From Thermodesulfobacteriota bacterium (GTDB taxonomy: Bacteria; Desulfobacterota; RBG-13-43-22), in NCBI GenBank assembly GCA_040755035.1, contig JBFMBU010000030.1:41045-105044 (forward strand): a stretch of DNA of 64,000 nt, written 5' to 3'. This document shows, one piece after another, positions 2,819 through 50,206 of the stretch (positions are counted from its first letter, which is position 1; each line of letters opens with the position of its first letter). The notes under the pieces are model-generated. The model saw only the letters and a program-made list of their open reading frames with translations, was not told where the DNA came from and ran no database searches. Position numbers and translations under genes: made by a program.

Positions 2819-3487
2819 ATGGTAGTGGCTGAACAAAAACCATTGAGTGAAATCCTGGAAATGGTCCAGCCGTATAAAAAAATCCTGGTGGCCGGTTGCA
2901 AGGGCTGTGTGACGGTCTGCAATGCCGGGGGGAAAAAAGAAGTGGAAATACTGGCCGCGGAACTGCGCATCGCTCGAAAAAAAGAAGGGATGGAAGGGGA
3001 TGTCCGGGAAATCACCCTGGAGCGGCAATGCGATCCGGAGTACATGGAACAGTTGGAGGAAGCCATCAGGGACCGGGATGCCGTACTTTCCATCGCCTGC
3101 AGTGTGGGGCCTCAATACATTGCCGGTCGTTTCCTTGATAAAATGGTCTTCCCCGGCCTGAATACCACCTTCATCGGCGGCTCACTGGAACATGGCGTTT
3201 TTGCTGAATTCTGTCAGGCCTGCGGGGCTTGCGGGATTCACAATTTCGGGGGATTATGCCCCATTGCCCGCTGTTCCAAAAGTCTGTTGAATGGTCCCTG
3301 CGGGGGGTCTTCCAGAGGCAAATGCGAGATCAGTAAAGAAGTGGATTGTGTTTGGCAGCTGATTTACGATCGTATGAGCCGTCTGGGGCAAATGGATCGC
3401 TTAACCAGGGTCATCCCCTGTAAGGATTGGACTACCAGCCGTGACGGCGGACCAAGGAAAACCATAAGGGAGGACTTGCGATTATGA
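2819..3487 (+). CDS. MetV-like methylene-THF reductase C-terminal-domain protein (Cys-rich, LNGPCGG motif)
   Basis: CxxC pairs, the LNGPCGGS motif, RBS aaggagg, and an ATGA overlap with metF. Confidence 0.75.
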   Translation: MVVAEQKPLSEILEMVQPYKKILVAGCKGCVTVCNAGGKKEVEILAAELRIARKKEGMEGDVREITLERQCDPEYMEQLEEAIRDRDAVLSIACSVGPQYIAGRFLDKMVFPGLNTTFIGGSLEHGVFAEFCQACGACGIHNFGGLCPIARCSKSLLNGPCGGSSRGKCEISKEVDCVWQLIYDRMSRLGQMDRLTRVIPCKDWTTSRDGGPRKTIREDLRL

Positions 3488-4407
3488 AATCAGGGAGTAA
3501 TTTGGAAAAGGTTCTCAGCGCCGGTCATTTTGCCGTAACCGGCGAATGCGGTCCTCCCAGGGGAGCTAATGCGCATGTGGTCCGGGAAAAAGCGGCCCAT
3601 TTAAAAGGGATTGTTGATTCGGTCAATATGACCGATAACCAGACGGCCGTAGTCCGTATGTCCAGTATGGCCGGTTGTTTGATTCTTCTCCAGGAGGGGC
3701 TGGAGCCGAACCTGCAGATGGTGGTCCGCGACCGGAACCGGATCGGCCTCCAAAGCGATATCCTGGGGGCATATGCCCTGGGAATTCGCAATATGCTTTG
3801 CCTCTCCGGCGACCACCAGAAATTCGGAGACCATCCTTCATCGAAAAATGTCTTTGATCTGGACTCCATGCAGTTGATTCAAACCGTTTACCGGATGCGG
3901 GAAGAGGGCAAGTTCATCAACGGTCAGGAAATCGATACTCCGCCGAAAATGTTCATCGGCGCGGCCGCTAACCCCTTTGCCGATCCGGCCGAATTCCGGG
4001 CCGTACGTCTGGGGAAAAAAGCAGCCTCCGGCGTCGATTTTGTACAAACCCAGTGCATCTTTAATCTGGACCGCTTTGAAAGATTTATGCAGCAGGTCAG
4101 AGACCTGGGGCTGGATGAAAAAGTATATATCCTGGGCGGGGTTACCCCGATGAAATCGGTCGGTATGGCCAATTATATGAAAAACCTGGTGCCGGGCATG
4201 GATGTGCCGGATGAGGTCATCAACCGCATGAAAGGCGTGGCCAAAAAAGATCAGGCCAAAGAAGGGATCGCCATCGCTGTGGAAACCATCCAACGACTGA
4301 AGGAGATGAAGGGGATCGCCGGGGTCCATATCATGGCCATCGAATGGGAGGAAAGGGTGCCGGAAATCACAGAAATGGCCGGGTTGCTTCCCAGACCCAA
4401 GGTATAA
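3484..4407 (+). CDS. metF: 5,10-methylenetetrahydrofolate reductase MetF
   Basis: Length 307 aa, MTHFR-like sequence, translationally coupled to the MetV-like gene. Confidence 0.85.
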   Translation: MKSGSNLEKVLSAGHFAVTGECGPPRGANAHVVREKAAHLKGIVDSVNMTDNQTAVVRMSSMAGCLILLQEGLEPNLQMVVRDRNRIGLQSDILGAYALGIRNMLCLSGDHQKFGDHPSSKNVFDLDSMQLIQTVYRMREEGKFINGQEIDTPPKMFIGAAANPFADPAEFRAVRLGKKAASGVDFVQTQCIFNLDRFERFMQQVRDLGLDEKVYILGGVTPMKSVGMANYMKNLVPGMDVPDEVINRMKGVAKKDQAKEGIAIAVETIQRLKEMKGIAGVHIMAIEWEERVPEITEMAGLLPRPKV

Positions 4408-4510: not shown

Positions 4511-4540
4511 AAAAAAGCCGCCCGTAGGCGGCTTTTTTTT
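4511..4540. terminator. Bidirectional rho-independent terminator between metF (+) and cpoB (-)
   Basis: aaaaaa-GCCGCC-cgta-GGCGGC-tttttttt, a perfect 6-bp GC stem flanked by an A-run and a T-run. Confidence 0.7.
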
Positions 4541-39998: not shown

Positions 39999-40206
39999 GA
40001 GCCTCTTGTTGCCTACCCCCGGTGACAATGCCAATCGGGCTTTTTGGCAGGCAGTGTACACTATTCAAAGGGTATTCCAAGATATCTTTCATACCGGATT
40101 CAGGTTAAAAATTCGGGCCGATTAATAAAACTTATGTAATTTAACTTGACAAGTTATTTTGTAAGTTGTATGTAAATATTTACAACTTACCCCTGGACCA
40201 AAGGTC

Positions 40207-41117: not shown

Positions 41118-42668
41118 ATGAGTTGGGAAAAGGAAGTTAAAGAAATCACCCGGCGGATGGAAATTTCCAAACAAATGGGGGGGCCGGAAAACGTGGCCCG
41201 CCATCATCAGTCCGGAAAATTGACGGTCAGGGAACGCATCGACCAGGTCCTCGATCAGGGGAGTTTTCGGGAGATCGGAGGCCTCACCGGCTCGGCCAAA
41301 TATGATGCCCAGGGGAACCTGCTGGATTTTACACCGGCCAATATAGTCATCGGCAGCGGTCGGATCAACCAGCGGAGGGTCGTGGTCTCCGGAGAAGACT
41401 TCACCATCCGGGGAGGTTCATCGGAGAGCACCGTTTCGGAAAAATGGATCTGGGCCGAACGCCTGGCCGCAGAGATGCAGATTCCTATGGTCCGTCTGGT
41501 GGATACGGCCGGAGGCAGCGTAAAACTGCTGGAGAAGGCGGGAGCAACCAAACTGCCGGGTTATCCCAACAATGATTCCCGGAACTTATTGGGCCTCATT
41601 CCGGTAGTGGCCGCAGCGCTTGGTTCTGTTGCCGGCCTGGGGGCGGCTCGAGTGGTGGGGGCCCATTTTTCAGTCATGGTCAAAGAAAAAAGCCAAGTCT
41701 TCGCCGCCGGACCTTTTGTCGTCACGCCGGCCACCGGAGAAAATCTGACCAAGGAGGATCTTGGGGGGTACAAAGTCCATACCAGGGGCAGCGGGGTCGT
41801 TGACAACGAGGCCGAGAGTGAAGCCGATGCCTTCATTCAGATCCGCACTTTTCTCTCTTTCATGCCCCAGAATGCCTTTCAGCTTCCTCCCCGGGAAATT
41901 CCCACCGATGATCCCAATCGAAGAGAGGAATCGCTTCTCTCGGCCATTCCCAATGACCGCCGAAAGAGTTACAACAGTCGCAAAATCCTCAAAGCGGTCT
42001 TTGATCACGATTCCCTTTTCGAAATCGGACGCTATCAAGGCCCTTCGATCATTTCCATGTTCGGGAGATTAAACGGCTATCCGGTTGGTATCATGGCCAG
42101 TGATCCCAACTATCTGGGAGGGGCCTTAACCGCCCAGGCTGCTGAAAAAATGACCCGTTTTGTGGACCTCTGCGACAGTTTTCATATTCCCATCGTAAAT
42201 TTCGTGGATCAGCCCGGGGTGATGATAGGACGGGAGGCGGAGAAACAGGGGACCATTCGAAAAGCGATCCGGGCCCTCGAGGCCATCGAACAGACCCAGA
42301 TACCCTGGGTGGCCATCCTGGTTCGAAAGGCCTTCGGTGTCGCCGGATCGGGTTATGGGCGGCAAAGGGACCTTAACCTGCGCTATGCCTGGCCCTCCGG
42401 CTTTTGGGGTTCGATTCCGGTCGAGGGAGGGGTGCAGGCCGCCTATTGGAAGGAAATTCAGGCCGCCGAAGACCCTGAGGCGCGATTGAAAGAACTGATC
42501 AAGTATTACCATGATTTTGAATCGCCTTTTCGGACAGCCGAGCGTTTCGGCGTTCAGGATATCATCGACCCCCGCGAAACCCGTCCGATCCTCTGCGATT
42601 GGGTGGAACAGGCATACGAAGTACTGCCCCGGCAACTCGGCCCGGTATTTCGAACCATGCGCTGCTGA
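41118..42668 (+). CDS. Acyl-CoA carboxyltransferase (propionyl-CoA carboxylase beta / methylmalonyl-CoA decarboxylase alpha family)
   Basis: Length 516 aa, two crotonase-like CT halves, oxyanion-hole glycines. Confidence 0.85.
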   Translation: MSWEKEVKEITRRMEISKQMGGPENVARHHQSGKLTVRERIDQVLDQGSFREIGGLTGSAKYDAQGNLLDFTPANIVIGSGRINQRRVVVSGEDFTIRGGSSESTVSEKWIWAERLAAEMQIPMVRLVDTAGGSVKLLEKAGATKLPGYPNNDSRNLLGLIPVVAAALGSVAGLGAARVVGAHFSVMVKEKSQVFAAGPFVVTPATGENLTKEDLGGYKVHTRGSGVVDNEAESEADAFIQIRTFLSFMPQNAFQLPPREIPTDDPNRREESLLSAIPNDRRKSYNSRKILKAVFDHDSLFEIGRYQGPSIISMFGRLNGYPVGIMASDPNYLGGALTAQAAEKMTRFVDLCDSFHIPIVNFVDQPGVMIGREAEKQGTIRKAIRALEAIEQTQIPWVAILVRKAFGVAGSGYGRQRDLNLRYAWPSGFWGSIPVEGGVQAAYWKEIQAAEDPEARLKELIKYYHDFESPFRTAERFGVQDIIDPRETRPILCDWVEQAYEVLPRQLGPVFRTMRC

Positions 42669-42689
42669 TCCGGTAGGAAATGGACGATA

Positions 42690-44243
42690 ATGAATCCCAA
42701 TTTGCTTTATACCTTTGCCCTTGAACGCTACCCGGAGCAGACCGCCATCATTTTCAACGAACAGCGGCTGACCTTTCGCCAGTTTCAGTGCCGCTCCAAT
42801 AAGCTCGGCAACGCCCTTCTGAATCTTGGACTTAAAAAGGGCCAAAAGGTGGCCGTTTTGTTGCAAAACAGCCTCGAACTGGCTGAAAGCCTGACCGGCA
42901 TATCCAAGGCCGGACTGGCTATCGTTCCCCTGAATGCCCGGCAAAGCGGTCCGGAACATGCCTATATTTTACATGATGCCGAGGCTGACGCCCTGATCGT
43001 CGGGGAATCCTTCTTTGAGGTTGTCGAACCCTTTTTATCCGATATCCCTCGCTTGAAACACCTCATCCGGGTAGGTGGGGGGAAAAATGGATTGGACTAC
43101 CACGAACTGGTTGATCCTCAATCAGAAACCCTCCCTGAAATAGAAGTCCAGGAAGAGGATATCGACCGTATTCATTATACCTCCGGGACCACGGGAAAAC
43201 CCAAAGGGGTGGTGGGAACCTTCGGGATTACTTATCATCGCCTGGTCAACGCCTGGATCAACCTGGATCAGCCGATAGGACCGGGCGATATCAATCTGAA
43301 CATCGGCCCCCTGACCCATGCCGCCGGGTTCATGATGAGCATCTACTCCCTGCGCGGGGCGGCCAATGTCATCCTGGATAAATTTGATATCGATCTGGTC
43401 CTGCAAACCATAGAAAAAGAAAAGGTGACCGCGGTCCTGTTCATTCCGACCATGATGAATATGATCCTGATGCATCCCCATTTGCATCGCTATGACCTGA
43501 GCAGCCTCAAGCGCATCTGGTACGGAACGGCGCCCATGGCCCCGGAAAAAATCAAGGAAGGGATCAAGATCTTCGGCAATATTTTTCGGCAAAATTACGG
43601 ATTAACCGAGGCCCCGCAGCCGATCCTTTTTTTAGGGCCCGAAGATCATATCATCGAAGGAACCGAGAAAGAAAAGAGACGGCTGGCTTCGGCCGGAAAA
43701 CCGGCCCTGGGGGTGGCGGTCAAAATCATCAAGGAGGATAATACGGAAATCAAACCCGGGGAAATCGGGGAGATCACCCTGCGGACCATCCAGGTGATGA
43801 AAGAATACTGGAAAAACCCCCAAGCCACGGCCGAAGCCTTCCGCGGGGGTTGGTTTCACACCGGAGATATGGCCACGGTCGACGATGACGGGTTCATCTA
43901 TATCATGGATCGCAAGCACGACATGATCATCAGCGGTGGTTTCAATATCTATCCCCGCGAGGTGGAGGACGCCATTATGACCCATCCCCTGGTGGCCGAA
44001 GCGGCGGTGATCGGTGTGCCGGATGAGGTTTGGGGGGAATCGGTCAAGGCCTTTGTGGTTTCCAAACCGGACAGTTCCGTCTCAACAGAGGAGATCATAG
44101 AAGTTTGCACAAGGCAACTGGCCGGCTATAAAAAACCCAAAAGCATTGAATTTGTAGACGACCTCCCCAAAAACGCCTATGGTAAAGTGCTCCGTAAAAA
44201 GCTGAAGGAACCTTTTTGGCAGGGACGGGAACGAAGGGTGTAG
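42690..44243 (+). CDS. AMP-dependent acyl-CoA synthetase/ligase
   Basis: YTSGTTGKPKGV motif; 517 aa. Confidence 0.85.
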   Translation: MNPNLLYTFALERYPEQTAIIFNEQRLTFRQFQCRSNKLGNALLNLGLKKGQKVAVLLQNSLELAESLTGISKAGLAIVPLNARQSGPEHAYILHDAEADALIVGESFFEVVEPFLSDIPRLKHLIRVGGGKNGLDYHELVDPQSETLPEIEVQEEDIDRIHYTSGTTGKPKGVVGTFGITYHRLVNAWINLDQPIGPGDINLNIGPLTHAAGFMMSIYSLRGAANVILDKFDIDLVLQTIEKEKVTAVLFIPTMMNMILMHPHLHRYDLSSLKRIWYGTAPMAPEKIKEGIKIFGNIFRQNYGLTEAPQPILFLGPEDHIIEGTEKEKRRLASAGKPALGVAVKIIKEDNTEIKPGEIGEITLRTIQVMKEYWKNPQATAEAFRGGWFHTGDMATVDDDGFIYIMDRKHDMIISGGFNIYPREVEDAIMTHPLVAEAAVIGVPDEVWGESVKAFVVSKPDSSVSTEEIIEVCTRQLAGYKKPKSIEFVDDLPKNAYGKVLRKKLKEPFWQGRERRV

Positions 44244-44291
44244 GCAGGAAGGTGGTCAGATACGATTTTGGCCTCAAAAAGAAGCCCTCTT

Positions 44292-44771
44292 ATGAAAAAA
44301 ATAAAAGCCCGAATCAAGCCTGACCTGATCGTTTATGGCATCCTCACTGCCTTTGCAGCCGTCATGCTTTTCCCTTCCCTAGACCTTGGATTAGGGGAAA
44401 AAGGAAACCTTGGACCGGGGCTTCTTCCTTTTATCGCCTCTATTTGTATTTTGGTCACAGGCTCTACGCTGGGCATTTCAAGTTTACTGAAAAAAGCAAG
44501 GGCCGGTCCTTCCCCTGAGAACGATGTCCTTGGCCGTAAAGAATGGCTCCAGGCTGCAGGAATTTTGTTCATTTTCTCCCTATGGCCCCTTTTGGTGGGA
44601 TTTGCCGGTTATATCTGGCCGACCCTTTTGGTGTCCTTCGGGTTGGCCAAAGCAGTTGGGTACAAATCCTGGAAGCAACCCGTCATATTCAGTGTGCTGA
44701 TTACCGCCTTTATCTGGCTTATTTTCGGAGTTCTATTTCATTTGGATTTGCCGTCAGGGTTTTCTTTTTAA
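44292..44771 (+). CDS. tctB: Tripartite tricarboxylate transporter small subunit TctB
   Basis: Four TM, about 160 aa, directly upstream of tctA. Confidence 0.6.
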   Translation: MKKIKARIKPDLIVYGILTAFAAVMLFPSLDLGLGEKGNLGPGLLPFIASICILVTGSTLGISSLLKKARAGPSPENDVLGRKEWLQAAGILFIFSLWPLLVGFAGYIWPTLLVSFGLAKAVGYKSWKQPVIFSVLITAFIWLIFGVLFHLDLPSGFSF

Positions 44772-44869
44772 ACCCCCTGGGGCCGGCCGAAGGCTGAACC
44801 TGGAATCCGACTTTAGAACCAAAGGTTTTCCTAACTACCCATTGGCTCGGTATCATTTGGGGAGGGATC

Positions 44870-46369
44870 GTGTCCGGAATAGAATATCTCTGGGATGGAT
44901 TTCAAGTCGCCCTTGCCCCGGCAAATTTTTTAATGTGTCTGGTCGGGGTGATCCTGGGAACTCTGGTAGGGGTGTTACCGGGGCTGGGCCCGATAGAGGC
45001 CATGGCCATTATGTTGCCGATCAGTATTCATTATGGGCCTCTGGCGGGACTGATCCTGCTGGCCGGGGTCTGGTATGGGGCCCAGTATGGTGGATCGACC
45101 ACCTCTATTCTGGTCAATATCCCCGGAGAAGCCTCCTCGGTGATTACCACTATTGAAGGGTATCAGATGACCAGAAAGGGCCGGGCCGGGGCGGCATTGG
45201 CTGTTTCGGCCGTCGGGTCCTTTTTTGCCGGTACTCTCGGAATTGTCATCCTGCAGTTATTTACCCCACCCTTAGCCGCTGCGGCCCTCTCCTTCGGGCC
45301 GCCGGAATATCTGGCCATCATGTTATTAGCTTTTGTCGCCCTTTCGACCCTTTCCGGGGATAATCCTTTTAAAGGAACCTTGATGATCGCCCTGGGAGCC
45401 TTTCTGAGCACGGTCGGAATAGACCGGATTGCCGGGGTTCAACGGTTTACCATGGGGATTCCGAATATGATGTACGGAATCCATTTTGTTCCTGTTGCCG
45501 TCGGCTTATTTGGAATTGCCGAGGTAATTCGGCTGGCACTGAAACCCTATACCCCCACCTCCCTCAAATCCGTCCGCTTCCGAGAACTCTATCCGAACCG
45601 GGAAGAAATCCGACGGTCCATTATCCCTATTATTCGCGGTTCTTTCATCGGCTCACTTTTCGGATTGTTGCCCGGCACACCTGCCGTTCTGGCCTCGTTC
45701 ACCTCGTACAGTGTTGAAAAAAGCCTTTCACCAAAAAAGGAGGAATTCGGCCATGGCGCCATCGAAGGCGTGGCCGGGCCGGAGTCAGCCAACAATTCGG
45801 CTGTGGTGCTGGCCCTGGTCCCTCTTCTCTGCTTGGGCATCCCTTTCGCCCCCGTGGCCGCACTGCTTCTGGCCGGCCTTCAATTGCACAATATAACTCC
45901 AGGTCCCTTGTTTATTCAGGAAAACCCTTCTATTTTTTGGGGTTTTGTCGCGGCCATGTACCTGGGAAACTTTCTTCTCCTGGTTTTGAATCTCCCCCTT
46001 GTCGGTCTTTTTGCCCGCGTGGCCACCCTCCGGCCCCGGGTATTAATACCTATTATCGGAATCCTCTGTTTATTAGGGGCCTACATGACCCGCATGGCCT
46101 TATTCGATGTCTGGGTCATGATCGCAGCAGGTATCGCCGGCTTTTTTCTGAACCACCTGGGATTTCCTTTGATCCCTCTAATTCTCGGAATGGTTCTCGG
46201 AAATATCTTGGAAGATAATCTCCGTGTGACCACCCAGTGGCTGAATGGAGACTTCGCTCTCCTCTTAACCCGTCCCATTGCCCTGGCCATCCTGGCCCTG
46301 ATACCCATTTATATCCTTTTCATCCGTTTGGCGGGTAAAAAGGTCCTTAGGAGCGGCATCAAGGACTAA
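44870..46369 (+). CDS. tctA: Tripartite tricarboxylate transporter large permease TctA
   Basis: Length 499 aa, polytopic, TctA-like. Confidence 0.85.
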   Translation: MSGIEYLWDGFQVALAPANFLMCLVGVILGTLVGVLPGLGPIEAMAIMLPISIHYGPLAGLILLAGVWYGAQYGGSTTSILVNIPGEASSVITTIEGYQMTRKGRAGAALAVSAVGSFFAGTLGIVILQLFTPPLAAAALSFGPPEYLAIMLLAFVALSTLSGDNPFKGTLMIALGAFLSTVGIDRIAGVQRFTMGIPNMMYGIHFVPVAVGLFGIAEVIRLALKPYTPTSLKSVRFRELYPNREEIRRSIIPIIRGSFIGSLFGLLPGTPAVLASFTSYSVEKSLSPKKEEFGHGAIEGVAGPESANNSAVVLALVPLLCLGIPFAPVAALLLAGLQLHNITPGPLFIQENPSIFWGFVAAMYLGNFLLLVLNLPLVGLFARVATLRPRVLIPIIGILCLLGAYMTRMALFDVWVMIAAGIAGFFLNHLGFPLIPLILGMVLGNILEDNLRVTTQWLNGDFALLLTRPIALAILALIPIYILFIRLAGKKVLRSGIKD

Positions 46370-46393
46370 TTAACGTTTTGAAACTCAGTTTGT

Positions 46394-46513
46394 TTGTGTC
46401 ATTTCCGGTCGATCGAGCCGCTCGACGGTGTCGAGCTTTTGAAAAGGCTCCTCGTCAGGAGCCGTAAGTCGATCCTTAGTAAAGGTCCCCCTGCGGAGAC
46501 CGGATCGAAACAC
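46394..46513 (+). other. Second GTCGA-rich palindromic intergenic element (related to 14829-14968), includes hairpin ggctcctcgtcaggagcc
   Basis: Shares the TGTCATTTC and CGGTCGAT blocks with the first element, a ccgg(a)tcgaaa near the 3' end, and multiple short IRs. Confidence 0.35.
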
Positions 46514-46667
46514 CTGGATGCAAGTTTGGAGCTCTTGCCAGGACCCCTTTTTTATAAAGGAGCTAAGGGTCCGGGATTGGACAACTCTTAAAAAAAGATC
46601 CCCAGTCCCTCTGGGTCAATATAAAAAAAGACACTTAAAACGTAAAAAACAAAAGGAGGTTTCAAAA

Positions 46668-47627
46668 ATGAAAAAATTTATTTTTGTTTTGATCCTGACT
46701 GTTTTTTGTTTCGGACTGTCGCAAACCGGGGTTTGGGCCTATCCGGAAAAACCGATCAAATTGATCATTGGCTATGAGGCCGGGAGCGCGACGGATCTGA
46801 TCGGGCGGACTTTTTTTAAACTTATGGAGAAAGAGCTGGGGCAGCCCTTTATGATTGTTAATAAACCAGGAGCCGCCAGTGCCCTGGCCTTAAGGGAACT
46901 CCTGGATGCCAAAGCCGACGGCTACACCCTGGGAATGAGCTGTTCGGTCAACGTGCTAAAAATTATGGGGCAGCTCCCCAAGACCCATCACGATTTTGAT
47001 GTGATCGGAATTCCTTTGCTCACCGGATCGGTATTAGCCGTACCGGCCAAAAGTCCTTTCCAATCCACAAAAGAGCTGGTCGATTATGCCCGGAGCAATC
47101 CGGAAAAACTCCGCCTGTCCACCACTTCAAAAGGAGCGGTGTTCTGGATTCACTCCCGGTACTTTGAACGACTGACTGGAGCCAAGTTCAACCTGATCAG
47201 CAACCCCGGCGGAGCCAGTTTCATCGCCACTCAATTAGGGGGAGCCCATGCCGACTTGGGATTTGCAGCCTACCGGCCTCTTCAGGGGCAGATAAAAGCC
47301 GGAAATATACGCCTGCTCGGGGTAACTACGGAAAAACGGGTGGCGGCCTTTCCCGATTTGCCGACCTTGAAAGAGCAGGGATACAACATGATTGTATCAG
47401 GCTGGGCCTCGATTCTGGCCCCCAAGGGTCTCCCGCCGGACATCTACAAAAAACTGGTTGCGGCCCATGCCAAATTGGTGGGAATAACGGAGTGGCAGGA
47501 TTTTTGTAATGCCACGGGGAGTGTCGGCTATCCGGAGTACACCGGGGAAGGGGCCATCAAATTTATGGATCAGGATGCCGAAATTCAAAAGCCGATCCTG
47601 GAGGAAATTGGAGCGGTAAAAAAATAA
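46668..47627 (+). CDS. tctC: TctC / Bug-family periplasmic substrate-binding protein
   Basis: Signal peptide; strong RBS aaaaggagg; Bug-like fold sequence. Confidence 0.8.
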   Translation: MKKFIFVLILTVFCFGLSQTGVWAYPEKPIKLIIGYEAGSATDLIGRTFFKLMEKELGQPFMIVNKPGAASALALRELLDAKADGYTLGMSCSVNVLKIMGQLPKTHHDFDVIGIPLLTGSVLAVPAKSPFQSTKELVDYARSNPEKLRLSTTSKGAVFWIHSRYFERLTGAKFNLISNPGGASFIATQLGGAHADLGFAAYRPLQGQIKAGNIRLLGVTTEKRVAAFPDLPTLKEQGYNMIVSGWASILAPKGLPPDIYKKLVAAHAKLVGITEWQDFCNATGSVGYPEYTGEGAIKFMDQDAEIQKPILEEIGAVKK

Positions 47628-47674
47628 CAGGATGTGGAAAAACTCATTTTTTAAGGAAAGGAATTGTTTTCCCA

Positions 47675-49210
47675 ATGAGCCACGCTGAAAAATTAGAACT
47701 TTTCGAAAAGAAGAGAAAACACCAGGTAGGCATGGGCGGGCCCAAGAAACTTGAGGCCCGCAAAGCCGCCGGGAAGCTGAACGTTCGGGAAAGGATCCAA
47801 TACTTTTTTGATCCAGGTTCATTTCAGGAGCTGGGGCTCTTTACCCATTCGGAATGGCCGGGGCAGGAAGAGCGTTCCCCCACCGACGGTAAACTCAGCG
47901 GCAGCGGTTTGGTCCAGGGGCGGACAGTGCTCACCGTTGCCAATGATATGACGGTCCTGGGGGCCTCCAGTGCCTCGACCAACATGAAAAAGATCGACTA
48001 CGTCCGATCCCTCAGTTGTGAAAAGGGGCTCCCTCTGGTCTTTCTGGGGGAATCGACCGGATCGCGCATGCCCGATTCCATGGGGGCCTTTGGCATGGGG
48101 CACGGCGGACAGAACCCGGCCCAGTACCGCCGGCTGCGGGAAGCCCCCTGGTTATCGGTGCTTCTTGGTCCCTGCTATGGCAGTTCAAGTTGGTACACGG
48201 CCTTGTCCGATATCAGTGTCATGCAAAAAGGTTCGATCATGGCCGTTTCCAGTCCCAAAGTGACCCAGCTGGCCACCGGGGAGAACACCCCTTCTGAAGC
48301 GTTGGGCGGCTGGAGGGTGCACGCGGAAATTACCGGAATGATCGACGCCGTCGGGGACAGCGAAGAACAATGTCTGGACCTGGCCAAACGGTTTTTAAGC
48401 TATCTGCCAACCAACGCGCAAGAACGCCCGCCGAAGACAGCGGTCCCGGAAGGATCGGGCCAGGATATGGACCGCATTTTAGAATTTCTTCCGGAACAGA
48501 CCTCCAAGGCCTATGATATGGAAAAAATCATCCGGACCATCATCGATCTCCAGTCTTTCCAGGAATTGAAAGCCCGGTTCGCCAGGCCCTGCATCACTGC
48601 TTTGGCCAGACTGAACGGGGAGGCGGTGGGGATCGTGGCCAATAATCCGCTCTATGGGGCCGGGGCCCTGACCGCTGACTGCTGTGACAAAATCACCGGT
48701 TTTCTGGTCCTCTGCGATTCCTACAATATCCCTATTATCCAGTTCGTGGATAATCCCGGGTTCATGATCGGAAAGGCCGGGGAATATAAAAAAGTCGTGG
48801 GAAAGATCATGAACTGGATGAATGCCCTTTCCCTGGTTACCGTTCCGGTTCTGACCGTGGTCATCGGAAAGACGTATGGCCAGGCCTATCTGAATATGGG
48901 GGGCGGGAAATATTCCAGTGCCTTTGTGGCCTGGCCCACGGCCGAAATCAGCTTTATGGGTCTCGAACCGGGAATCAATGTGGTCTACAATATAAAAAAG
49001 ACTGAAGACCCGGAAAAATTCCAGGAACTGCTCGATCAGATGGGGAAGGCTACCGAACCTTATGATGCCGCCGGTATTTTCGGGCTGACCGATGTCATCC
49101 ATCCGGCGGAAACCCGTGATTACCTGACAAAGATGCTGGATCTGCATTACAACCGTTTTTCCGGGGGGATCGGTCGCCATTTGCTCCACAACTGGCCGAC
49201 CACCTACTAA
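47675..49210 (+). CDS. Second acyl-CoA carboxyltransferase paralog
   Basis: Length 511 aa, CT family, paralog of 41118..42668. Confidence 0.85.
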   Translation: MSHAEKLELFEKKRKHQVGMGGPKKLEARKAAGKLNVRERIQYFFDPGSFQELGLFTHSEWPGQEERSPTDGKLSGSGLVQGRTVLTVANDMTVLGASSASTNMKKIDYVRSLSCEKGLPLVFLGESTGSRMPDSMGAFGMGHGGQNPAQYRRLREAPWLSVLLGPCYGSSSWYTALSDISVMQKGSIMAVSSPKVTQLATGENTPSEALGGWRVHAEITGMIDAVGDSEEQCLDLAKRFLSYLPTNAQERPPKTAVPEGSGQDMDRILEFLPEQTSKAYDMEKIIRTIIDLQSFQELKARFARPCITALARLNGEAVGIVANNPLYGAGALTADCCDKITGFLVLCDSYNIPIIQFVDNPGFMIGKAGEYKKVVGKIMNWMNALSLVTVPVLTVVIGKTYGQAYLNMGGGKYSSAFVAWPTAEISFMGLEPGINVVYNIKKTEDPEKFQELLDQMGKATEPYDAAGIFGLTDVIHPAETRDYLTKMLDLHYNRFSGGIGRHLLHNWPTTY

Positions 49211-49235
49211 GTCCCTCTAAAGAAAAGGAGAGAAT

Positions 49236-49343
49236 ATGGAAATGACGATATTGAGGAATACTGACGGGACCTTGAAGGGGATAAAGGTGGCGAAAAGGGA
49301 GTCGGTTGAGGCCGACCAGGTCTTGTTTATTATTGAATAGAAT
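49236..49343 (+). pseudogene. Remnant of a biotinyl (BCCP-like) domain, truncated immediately before the EAMKM biotin-attachment motif
   Basis: Strong RBS aaaggagag. The peptide ...GTLKGIKVAKRESVEADQVLFIIE-stop closely matches the biotinyl consensus ...GtvxkilVkeGDxVeaGQxLliiEAMKM. Confidence 0.45.
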
Positions 49344-49388
49344 TCCTGTTGTAGAATAAATTCTATCCACTTAGCCTTGAATTCTATT
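49336..49388. promoter_or_regulatory. 10-bp inverted repeat AATAGAATTC / GAATTCTATT flanking an inner palindrome TAGAAT-aa-ATTCTA
   Basis: Seen directly; overlaps the stop of the biotinyl remnant, about 45 nt upstream of the hydratase start. Confidence 0.4.
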
Positions 49389-49429
49389 CTTAAGGTGCTA
49401 TGCCTGTTTCAGGATTACGGGGGAGCGGC

Positions 49430-50206
49430 ATGAGTCTTTTGTATGAAAAAAAAGAAAAAATTGCGATCCTAACACTTAACCGTCCTGAGGTCCTTAATGC
49501 CATAAACCCGGATATGGCGGATAAACTGTTAAAGGCCTGGTTGGATTTCTCGAATGATCCTGAACTCTTGGTGCTGATCATAACCGGTGCGGGAGACAAG
49601 GCCTTTTGTGTCGGCGCGGATATCAAGGACCGGGATCAAACCGGGCAGGATCCCCATCTTTCCCAGTTCTGGGGAGCGGGATTGAAAACCCCTATGCGAG
49701 GGATTGAAGTCAATAAACCGGTAATCGCAGCGATTAACGGTTATTGTCTGGGTGGAGGATTGGAATTGGCCCTGGTTTGTGACATCCGTATCGCCTCTGA
49801 AAATGCCCGTTTCGGACAACCGGAAATTAAAAGAGGCATCTTCCCCGGTATGGGCGCCACACAAAGGCTTCCGCGGTCCATGCCCTACAATCTGGCGGCC
49901 GAGCTTCTGCTGACCGGTGAACAAATCGATGCCCGCGAGGCCTACCGAATCGGTTTAATCAACCGTGTCCTACCTCTTGAACAGTTGATGAAGGCCGCCT
50001 GGGCCCTGGCGGAAACCATCAGCGATAATGCCCCCTTGGCCCTGAGAGCGGCCAAAGAGGCTTTGCTCAGAAGTTATGATCTGCCCCTGGAGCAAGGGCT
50101 GCGGCTGGAAGGCCTGCTTCGAAAAATTATCGGGGAAACCGAGGATGCCGGGGAAGGCCAGCGTGCCTTTATAGAACGGAGAAAACCGGAATTTAAAAAC
50201 CGGTGA
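49430..50206 (+). CDS. Enoyl-CoA hydratase/isomerase (crotonase family)
   Basis: Crotonase-fold motifs (AAINGYCLGGGLELAL); RBS ggggag. Confidence 0.85.
   Translation: MSLLYEKKEKIAILTLNRPEVLNAINPDMADKLLKAWLDFSNDPELLVLIITGAGDKAFCVGADIKDRDQTGQDPHLSQFWGAGLKTPMRGIEVNKPVIAAINGYCLGGGLELALVCDIRIASENARFGQPEIKRGIFPGMGATQRLPRSMPYNLAAELLLTGEQIDAREAYRIGLINRVLPLEQLMKAAWALAETISDNAPLALRAAKEALLRSYDLPLEQGLRLEGLLRKIIGETEDAGEGQRAFIERRKPEFKNR

Follow-up and report, generated by a model that had tools for sequence, protein, structure and literature searches.

A truncated biotin-carrier reading frame beside a carboxyltransferase gene: probable remnant of a lost carrier gene in a Thermodesulfobacteriota genome

The carboxyltransferase locus and its short reading frame

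The 64-kb stretch of Thermodesulfobacteriota DNA that was analyzed, hereafter the window, encodes two carboxyltransferases, CT1 and CT2. The genes of the locus occur in the order GntR/UTRA regulator (40207), CT1 (41118), acyl-CoA synthetase (42690), the transporter genes TctB, TctA and TctC, CT2, a very short open reading frame (mini-ORF), enoyl-CoA hydratase and PLP-dependent decarboxylase. The features considered here are the following.

41118-42668, + strand: CT1, second carboxyltransferase (Pfam), about 31% identical to CT2
47675-49210, + strand: CT2, 511-aa carboxyltransferase of the acyl-CoA carboxylase beta / MmdA / 12S type (Pfam Carboxyl_trans, E=2.3e-94)
49211-49235, + strand: intergenic spacer between CT2 and the mini-ORF, 25 nt, holding AAGGAGAG; of the same length class as the spacers before full-length carriers in relatives
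49236-49340, + strand: mini-ORF, C-terminal half of a small biotin-carrier gene (Pfam, gap-free alignment, half-profiles)
49335-49389, no strand: AT-rich hairpin or palindrome over the last codon and stop of the mini-ORF, with perfect 11-bp arms and an inner TAGAATAAATTCTA
49430-50206, + strand: enoyl-CoA hydratase (Pfam ECH_1); the longest ORF starts at 49400

CT2 scores 350 bits against the NCBIfam mmdA subfamily, under the cutoff of that model, and among solved structures it comes closest to PCC beta (1vrg) and transcarboxylase 12S (1on3). A first-pass annotation of the window, made from the sequence by a reader without search tools, had noted two carboxyltransferases lacking a cognate carrier. 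This holds: CT1 and CT2 are both present, there is no intact carrier in the 64 kb, and no other biotinyl domain or biotin carboxylase was detectable in the window. Upstream of the GntR/UTRA gene we observed a consensus TTGACA (40146-40151) and, after it, the two arms of a perfect 10-bp inverted repeat, GTAAGTTGTA at 40161-40170 and TACAACTTAC at 40181-40190, which stand 10 nt apart. From its sequence, this region looks like an autoregulated promoter with a putative operator.

The mini-ORF begins with ATG, encodes 34 amino acids (MEMTILRNTDGTLKGIKVAKRESVEADQVLFIIE) and ends in TAG (49236-49340, + strand); the product, with the peptide MEMTILRNTDGTLK, would be about 4 kDa. Its ribosome-binding site, AAGGAGAG, lies 5-6 nt 5' of the ATG. 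An in-frame TAA at 49218-49220, 5' of the mini-ORF, means that there is no longer reading of the frame. The codon directly before the ATG, outside the ORF, is AAT, and the biotinyl lysine codon is absent there. The first-pass annotation had described a 35-codon ORF with a strong ribosome-binding site and a TAG stop, of which only the length needs correction. A promoter and terminator scan returned one weak promoter-like site, and neither a promoter nor a terminator call was convincing. Within the 3' end of the mini-ORF (window 49304-49335), a weak terminator-like stem (TGAGGCC...GGTCTTG) with TTTATTATTG after it received two overlapping terminator calls, where 0.4 were expected in shuffles.

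The mini-ORF ends 89 nt before the probable hydratase start at 49430. We place this start at 49430, rather than at 49400, because the NCBIfam alignment of the hydratase begins at residue 3-4 counted from the Met at 49430, because GGGGGAG precedes this ATG, and because the same GGGAGCGGCAT ribosome-binding region stands before the hydratase of a related locus (L041). The hydratase gene lies within 25 nt of CT2 in four other relatives. The CT2-hydratase gap of the window contains an extra block of about 195 nt, made up of the mini-ORF and the AT-rich palindrome.

Similarity to biotinyl domains and carrier genes in related loci

The mini-ORF peptide matches Pfam PF00364 (Biotin_lipoyl) with an E-value of 5e-4 and 20.3 bits (gathering score 22.1); the matched part of the profile, positions 41-73 of 73, forms the C-terminal half of the domain. 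No NCBIfam family matched the peptide at an E-value of 0.01 or better. The biotinyl-domain similarity is real but weak; alignment to biotinyl HMMs, a check proposed in the first-pass annotation, thus returned the similarity, at a score below gathering and without an NCBIfam match. Comparison with single structures was ambiguous as to which half survives. PDB chain 8hz4_E scored 12.6 bits by its N half versus 1.4 bits by its C half, and 1dcz scored 8.1 bits by its C half versus 4.7 bits by its N half. The position of the start codon cannot separate the two readings either, as it is in its native place in both.

Since the single-sequence comparison could not decide the half, we used half-profiles, for which the N halves and C halves of 19 distinct carriers were built separately, with leave-one-out controls in which the training sequences were less than 60% identical to the test sequence. 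The peptide scored 22.4 bits against the C-half profile, aligned from 1-34 to 1-34, whereas the N-half profile gave 7.7 bits and aligned residues 15-34 alone. In the controls all true C halves favored the C profile (by 2 to 38 bits) and all true N halves the N profile (by 8 to 33 bits). With a margin of +14.7 bits for C over N, the peptide belongs among the C halves. When the C-half profile was run over all frames downstream of 91 CT2 genes, the mini-ORF was recovered with an E-value of 5.8e-6. The peptide aligns without gaps to positions 39-72 of the 73-aa carriers of relatives, its first Met being the Met after the biotinyl Lys and its last Glu the conserved terminal Glu.

These results invert the geometry of the first-pass annotation, which had seen the first half of a biotinyl domain, cut exactly before EAMKM and stopping where AMKM should follow. 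The mini-ORF is the C-terminal half; it starts just past the Lys of AMK and ends at the natural C-terminus of the domain, and the break lies on the 5' side, where the N half and the (A/S)MK motif have been removed. Given a pseudo-symmetric domain and an ambiguous single-sequence comparison, the wrong choice of half by a reader without tools is understandable. The broader statement, that the remnant of a biotin carrier lies beside a carboxyltransferase, is borne out by Pfam and by the carriers of relatives, which identify a truncated carrier remnant.

At 34 aa, the mini-ORF falls short of a complete domain, which has about 70 aa and both halves of the flattened beta-barrel, and it lacks the (A/S)MKM biotinyl-lysine motif. 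One of the three turn glycines of the C half (DG, EGD, EGQ) is kept (G11). Arg21 of the mini-ORF stands in place of the glycine of the EGD turn, which 19 of 19 carriers have, and Asp27 in place of that of the EGQ turn, which 18 of 19 have; a single nucleotide substitution suffices for each change. Identity to the C halves of relatives is 29-39%, which is no lower than between functional carriers of different clades. With the ORF open, the ribosome-binding site strong and the identity not reduced, the two lost glycines are the one visible sign of decay.

Scans of genome and metagenome collections based on CT2 yielded 94 related loci. A biotin carrier of 69-73 aa adjoins the CT2 homologue in 27 of them, usually directly after it, so that the intact carrier sought by the first-pass annotation at the homologous site of relatives does exist. 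In most of the 27 loci the carrier starts 8-35 nt past the CT2 stop (25 nt for the mini-ORF of the window), and the mini-ORF likewise lies on the same strand as, and next to, a biotin-dependent carboxyltransferase. The carriers share the consensus M-A-x-x-E-x-K-x-E-V-T-G-S-V-W-K-I...I-V-E-S-M-K, then M-E-I-P-V-I-A-E-x-G-G-T-I...E-G-D-S-V-x-E-G-Q-x-V-A-x-L-E-(x)-stop, and the mini-ORF matches the part from M-E-I-P. Two carriers (L051 and L059) end at the same Glu as the mini-ORF and most others are one residue longer. One carrier (L014) is assigned to the NCBIfam equivalog “biotin/lipoyl-binding carrier protein” (NF004547 / PRK05889) with 84.3 bits (cutoff 75).

In a neighbor-joining tree of CT2 homologues, carrier-bearing loci occur in several deep branches, and the carrier-bearing L051 (65% CT2 identity) is the sister of the subclade of the window. 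From this spread over the tree, the linkage of CT2 and carrier looks ancestral. No carrier was found in the fetched flanks of 24 of the 25 loci of the same clade (61-83% CT2 identity). Loss of the local carrier is thus clade-wide, with the mini-ORF as a leftover trace of it. The first-pass annotation had proposed that the remnant explains the missing carrier of the carboxyltransferases; the carrier is indeed missing, but the causal claim is overstated, as the loss extends through the clade.

The closest relatives in the sample, L001-L003 and L043, have 80-83% CT2 identity (none exceeds 83%), and a carrier is absent from the flanks of all four. Upstream synteny with the window (ACS and/or Tct genes) is seen in L001, L002 and L043, and L003 keeps the Tct genes; in L001-L003 the genes after CT2 are unrelated. 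We searched three forward frames over 450 nt after CT2 in 91 loci and found the half-domain remnant in the window alone. The 90 other loci whose sequence continues past CT2 all lack it, so that conservation of the same short ORF in relatives, named in the first-pass annotation as a refuting observation, was not seen. In a predicted-protein database of 5.8 billion clusters no protein shared words with the mini-ORF peptide (query padded to 40 aa), neither CT2 nor the peptide had an exact match in public assemblies, and the literature searched for truncated biotin-carrier pseudogenes yielded no relevant report.

The gene neighborhoods of relatives bear on the function of this family. In Casimicrobiaceae-type loci the order is CT2, carrier, CT1 homologue, and a cassette of CT2 homologue, 73-aa carrier and CT1 homologue was observed in L010-L014, L017, L061, L062, L065, L067, L074 and L088. 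In one of these (L013, 6001-11950) a family-III CoA-transferase lies upstream, and a biotin carboxylase follows CT1 at a distance of about 1.2 kb. Judged by gene content, the cassette would be a biotin-dependent carboxylase with two full-length carboxyltransferase paralogues. A Desulfobacterales locus of the delta clade (L007, 65% CT2 identity) encodes an ATP-grasp biotin carboxylase (2925-3686) about 80 nt after CT2, and the contig ends within this gene. The carrier cassettes and biotin carboxylases of relatives indicate that the family is part of biotin-dependent acyl-CoA carboxylase systems in which two carboxyltransferase paralogues occur.

Other arrangements were also seen. A Desulfovibrionaceae locus (L009, 2061-11906) encodes a 2-oxoacid:ferredoxin oxidoreductase, CT2 and carrier, an ADP-forming acyl-CoA synthetase and a second carboxyltransferase of 592 aa, with no biotin carboxylase within 13.5 kb, an arrangement that would suit a transcarboxylase or decarboxylase. 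The clade of the window (window 41118-50206; L001, L002, L043 and L093) keeps CT1, acyl-CoA synthetase, TctBAC and CT2 together, and neither a biotin carrier nor a biotin carboxylase was found in the fetched flanks of these four relatives.

The inverted repeat at the stop codon

The arms of the repeat that overlaps the end of the mini-ORF, GAATAGAATTC (49335-49345) and GAATTCTATTC (49379-49389), are separated by 33 nt. This inner segment contains the 14-nt TAGAATAAATTCTA at 49352-49365, off-center in the outer repeat, and the rest of it is not palindromic; the left arm has an alternative pairing at 49359-49369. The first-pass annotation had placed the stop inside a 10-bp inverted repeat bracketing a 33-bp palindromic segment. 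The overlap with the stop and the 33-nt spacing were accurate; the arms are 11 bp long and the segment is palindromic only in part. As RNA, the hairpin folds with -15.1 kcal/mol (z=-2.6). Perfect inverted repeats whose arms reach 11 bp and whose loops do not exceed 50 nt number five in the window, where 1.2 are expected, and the repeat at the stop codon is beyond chance but not exceptional. Another of the five, AAAAAAGCCGC / GCGGCTTTTTT (window 4511-4538), looks from its sequence like a bidirectional intrinsic terminator.

Several candidate roles for the palindrome were considered, and none is supported. An intrinsic (Rho-independent) terminator at 49335-49389 does not fit the AT-rich stem, which has no U-tract and is followed by TTAAGG, and the scan did not report one. 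A mobile mini-element would be in keeping with the terminal inverted repeats, but the palindrome is single-copy and has no target-site duplication. An operator shared with the regulator finds no support, as the palindrome in the spacers that flank the GntR gene is a different one, unrelated in sequence. The search for further copies proposed in the first-pass annotation found none in the 64-kb window, the 94 loci or viral contigs, and the flanks (TTATT on the left, TTAAG on the right) show no target-site duplication. Rfam returned no family for the hairpin in 49150-49480, only a chance match.

We consider the palindrome to be an ordinary stem-loop between genes, which from its position possibly influences how stable the mRNA is, or how it is processed, between the CT2 and hydratase cistrons. 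It cannot have truncated the gene, since it starts only with the last sense codon and includes the native stop. The opposite had been suggested at first pass, together with the idea of a small insertion footprint. The TAG is the native stop, at the same position as in the full-length carriers of relatives, and this single-copy element gives no sign of a mobile mini-insertion.

Origin of the fragment and its place among known systems

We interpret the mini-ORF, with a probability of roughly 0.7, as a non-functional and non-biotinylatable vestige of a PRK05889-type carrier gene of about 73 aa, left by a 5' in-frame deletion. The ancestral state would be a small stand-alone carrier gene after CT2. 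An in-frame deletion of about 114 nt, covering codons 2-39, would then have occurred, probably between two ATGG motifs, one at the start and one at the Met-Glu after the Lys. The carrier genes of relatives begin with (A/G)TGG, exactly 114 nt from the ATGGA of Met39-Glu40, and the window has ATGGAA; we infer that loss of 114 nt between these 4-nt microhomologies would give the observed ORF in a single step. Such an event would have removed the N-terminal half of the barrel and the (A/S)MK motif, i.e., 38 residues after the initiator Met, while sparing the original ribosome-binding site as well as the C-terminal half with its native stop. The product, if made, could not be biotinylated and would be unable to form the two-halved beta-barrel. 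The change of two glycines to Arg and Asp would have come later, which fits relaxed constraint after inactivation. CT1 and CT2 would have to use a carrier encoded elsewhere in the genome, as presumably would their closest relatives. Against a deletion, the sequence comes from a metagenome bin and the break may be an assembly artefact.

The main alternative is that the half-domain is kept as a functional micro-protein, translated from the retained ribosome-binding site and acting either as a non-biotinylatable decoy or docking subunit on CT1/CT2, or one whose paired copies mimic the barrel. The intact ORF, with a near-consensus ribosome-binding site at the right spacing, and the preserved alternating hydrophobic pattern and DG-T-L motif of the C half would fit such a protein, but the lack of a similar ORF downstream of any of the 90 other CT2 genes and of any similar predicted protein, the replacement of two structurally important glycines by charged residues, and the expectation that half of an interleaved barrel is unlikely to fold alone make it improbable. 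Still less probable is a more specific version, in which the 34-aa protein is expressed and kept as a CT1/CT2-docking regulator or assembly factor, a half-size bacterial counterpart of the plant BADC proteins discussed below. If true, it would be a regulator in a clade whose two-carboxyltransferase system gave up its dedicated carrier.

The idea that the ORF is an N-terminal half with its native start, cut before (A/S)MKM by a palindromic insertion or recombination that brought the TAG and replaced the C half, draws on the N half of relatives (M1-E35), which has about the length of the ORF and also ends in ...I-(I/V)-E, on the stop within the left arm of the 11-bp perfect inverted repeat, and on the one PDB chain (8hz4_E) that aligns better by its N half. 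We regard it as very improbable. Pfam and the family profiles pick the C half, by a margin opposite in direction to that of every true N half; the Trp of GSVWKI, present in 16 of 19 carriers, is missing from the ORF, and its MEMTI matches the post-lysine ME(I/V)P(V/L). The palindrome moreover has neither another copy nor an evident target-site duplication, and an insertion plus a C-half deletion would be needed where one deletion otherwise suffices. Least credible of all is a chance reading frame between genes with an accidental biotinyl resemblance. Such a frame could well be very short, score under the Pfam gathering threshold and lack an NCBIfam match, but it would hardly reach the E-values obtained with Pfam and with the C-half profile, occupy the same position and strand as the carrier in most of the 27 carrier-bearing relatives, and align over its whole length, beginning at the Met that follows the Lys and finishing at the native stop.

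Read as a vestige of a deleted carrier gene, the mini-ORF records that the CT1/CT2 acyl-CoA carboxyltransferase cluster of a deltaproteobacterial lineage once had its own small carrier, and it marks how and where that carrier was lost, with distant relatives that keep CT2, carrier and CT1, some of them with a biotin carboxylase nearby. The remnant itself is outweighed by the question of how two carboxyltransferases operate in a clade that encodes neither a carrier nor a biotin carboxylase beside them; CT1 and CT2 may obtain carboxybiotin in some other way or act without biotin. There are also two cautions for annotation. The biotinyl domain is pseudo-symmetric, so that a fragment is easily assigned to the wrong half, and a strong ribosome-binding site does not by itself make a short ORF a gene.

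Among known elements, the palindrome shares with intergenic hairpins, REP-like palindromes and miniature inverted-repeat elements its perfect 11-bp repeat, AT-rich spacer and place after a stop codon. Unlike REP-like and miniature elements, it is single-copy in everything searched and lacks a target-site duplication. The BADC proteins of plants are BCCP-like proteins without the biotinyl Lys that regulate acetyl-CoA carboxylase. Like them, the mini-ORF product would be carrier-like, not biotinylatable and encoded alongside a biotin-dependent carboxylase system. However, BADC proteins contain the entire domain and are maintained by selection, whereas the mini-ORF encodes a half-domain found in one genome only.

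Among complete carriers, the closest are those of the transcarboxylases and decarboxylases and the PRK05889-type carriers. CT2 is close to the transcarboxylase 12S subunit (1on3), and the C half of the Propionibacterium transcarboxylase 1.3S subunit (1dcz/1o78), K-METEINAPTDGKVEKVLVKERDAVQGGQGLI, aligns from the first Met of the mini-ORF, at a non-significant E-value of 0.33. The 1.3S subunit and GcdC/MmdC are, unlike the mini-ORF, complete biotinylated carriers with N-terminal extensions. The NF004547 / PRK05889 carriers (about 71 aa; PF00364) share with the mini-ORF homologous C-terminal 34 residues, the same genomic position and the same stop. The mini-ORF differs from them in having half a domain, no (A/S)MKM Lys, two glycines lost and scores below thresholds, and is a fragment of such a carrier rather than a member of the family. 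It is thus a fresh example of a familiar thing, a decaying gene fragment, and of small importance in itself.
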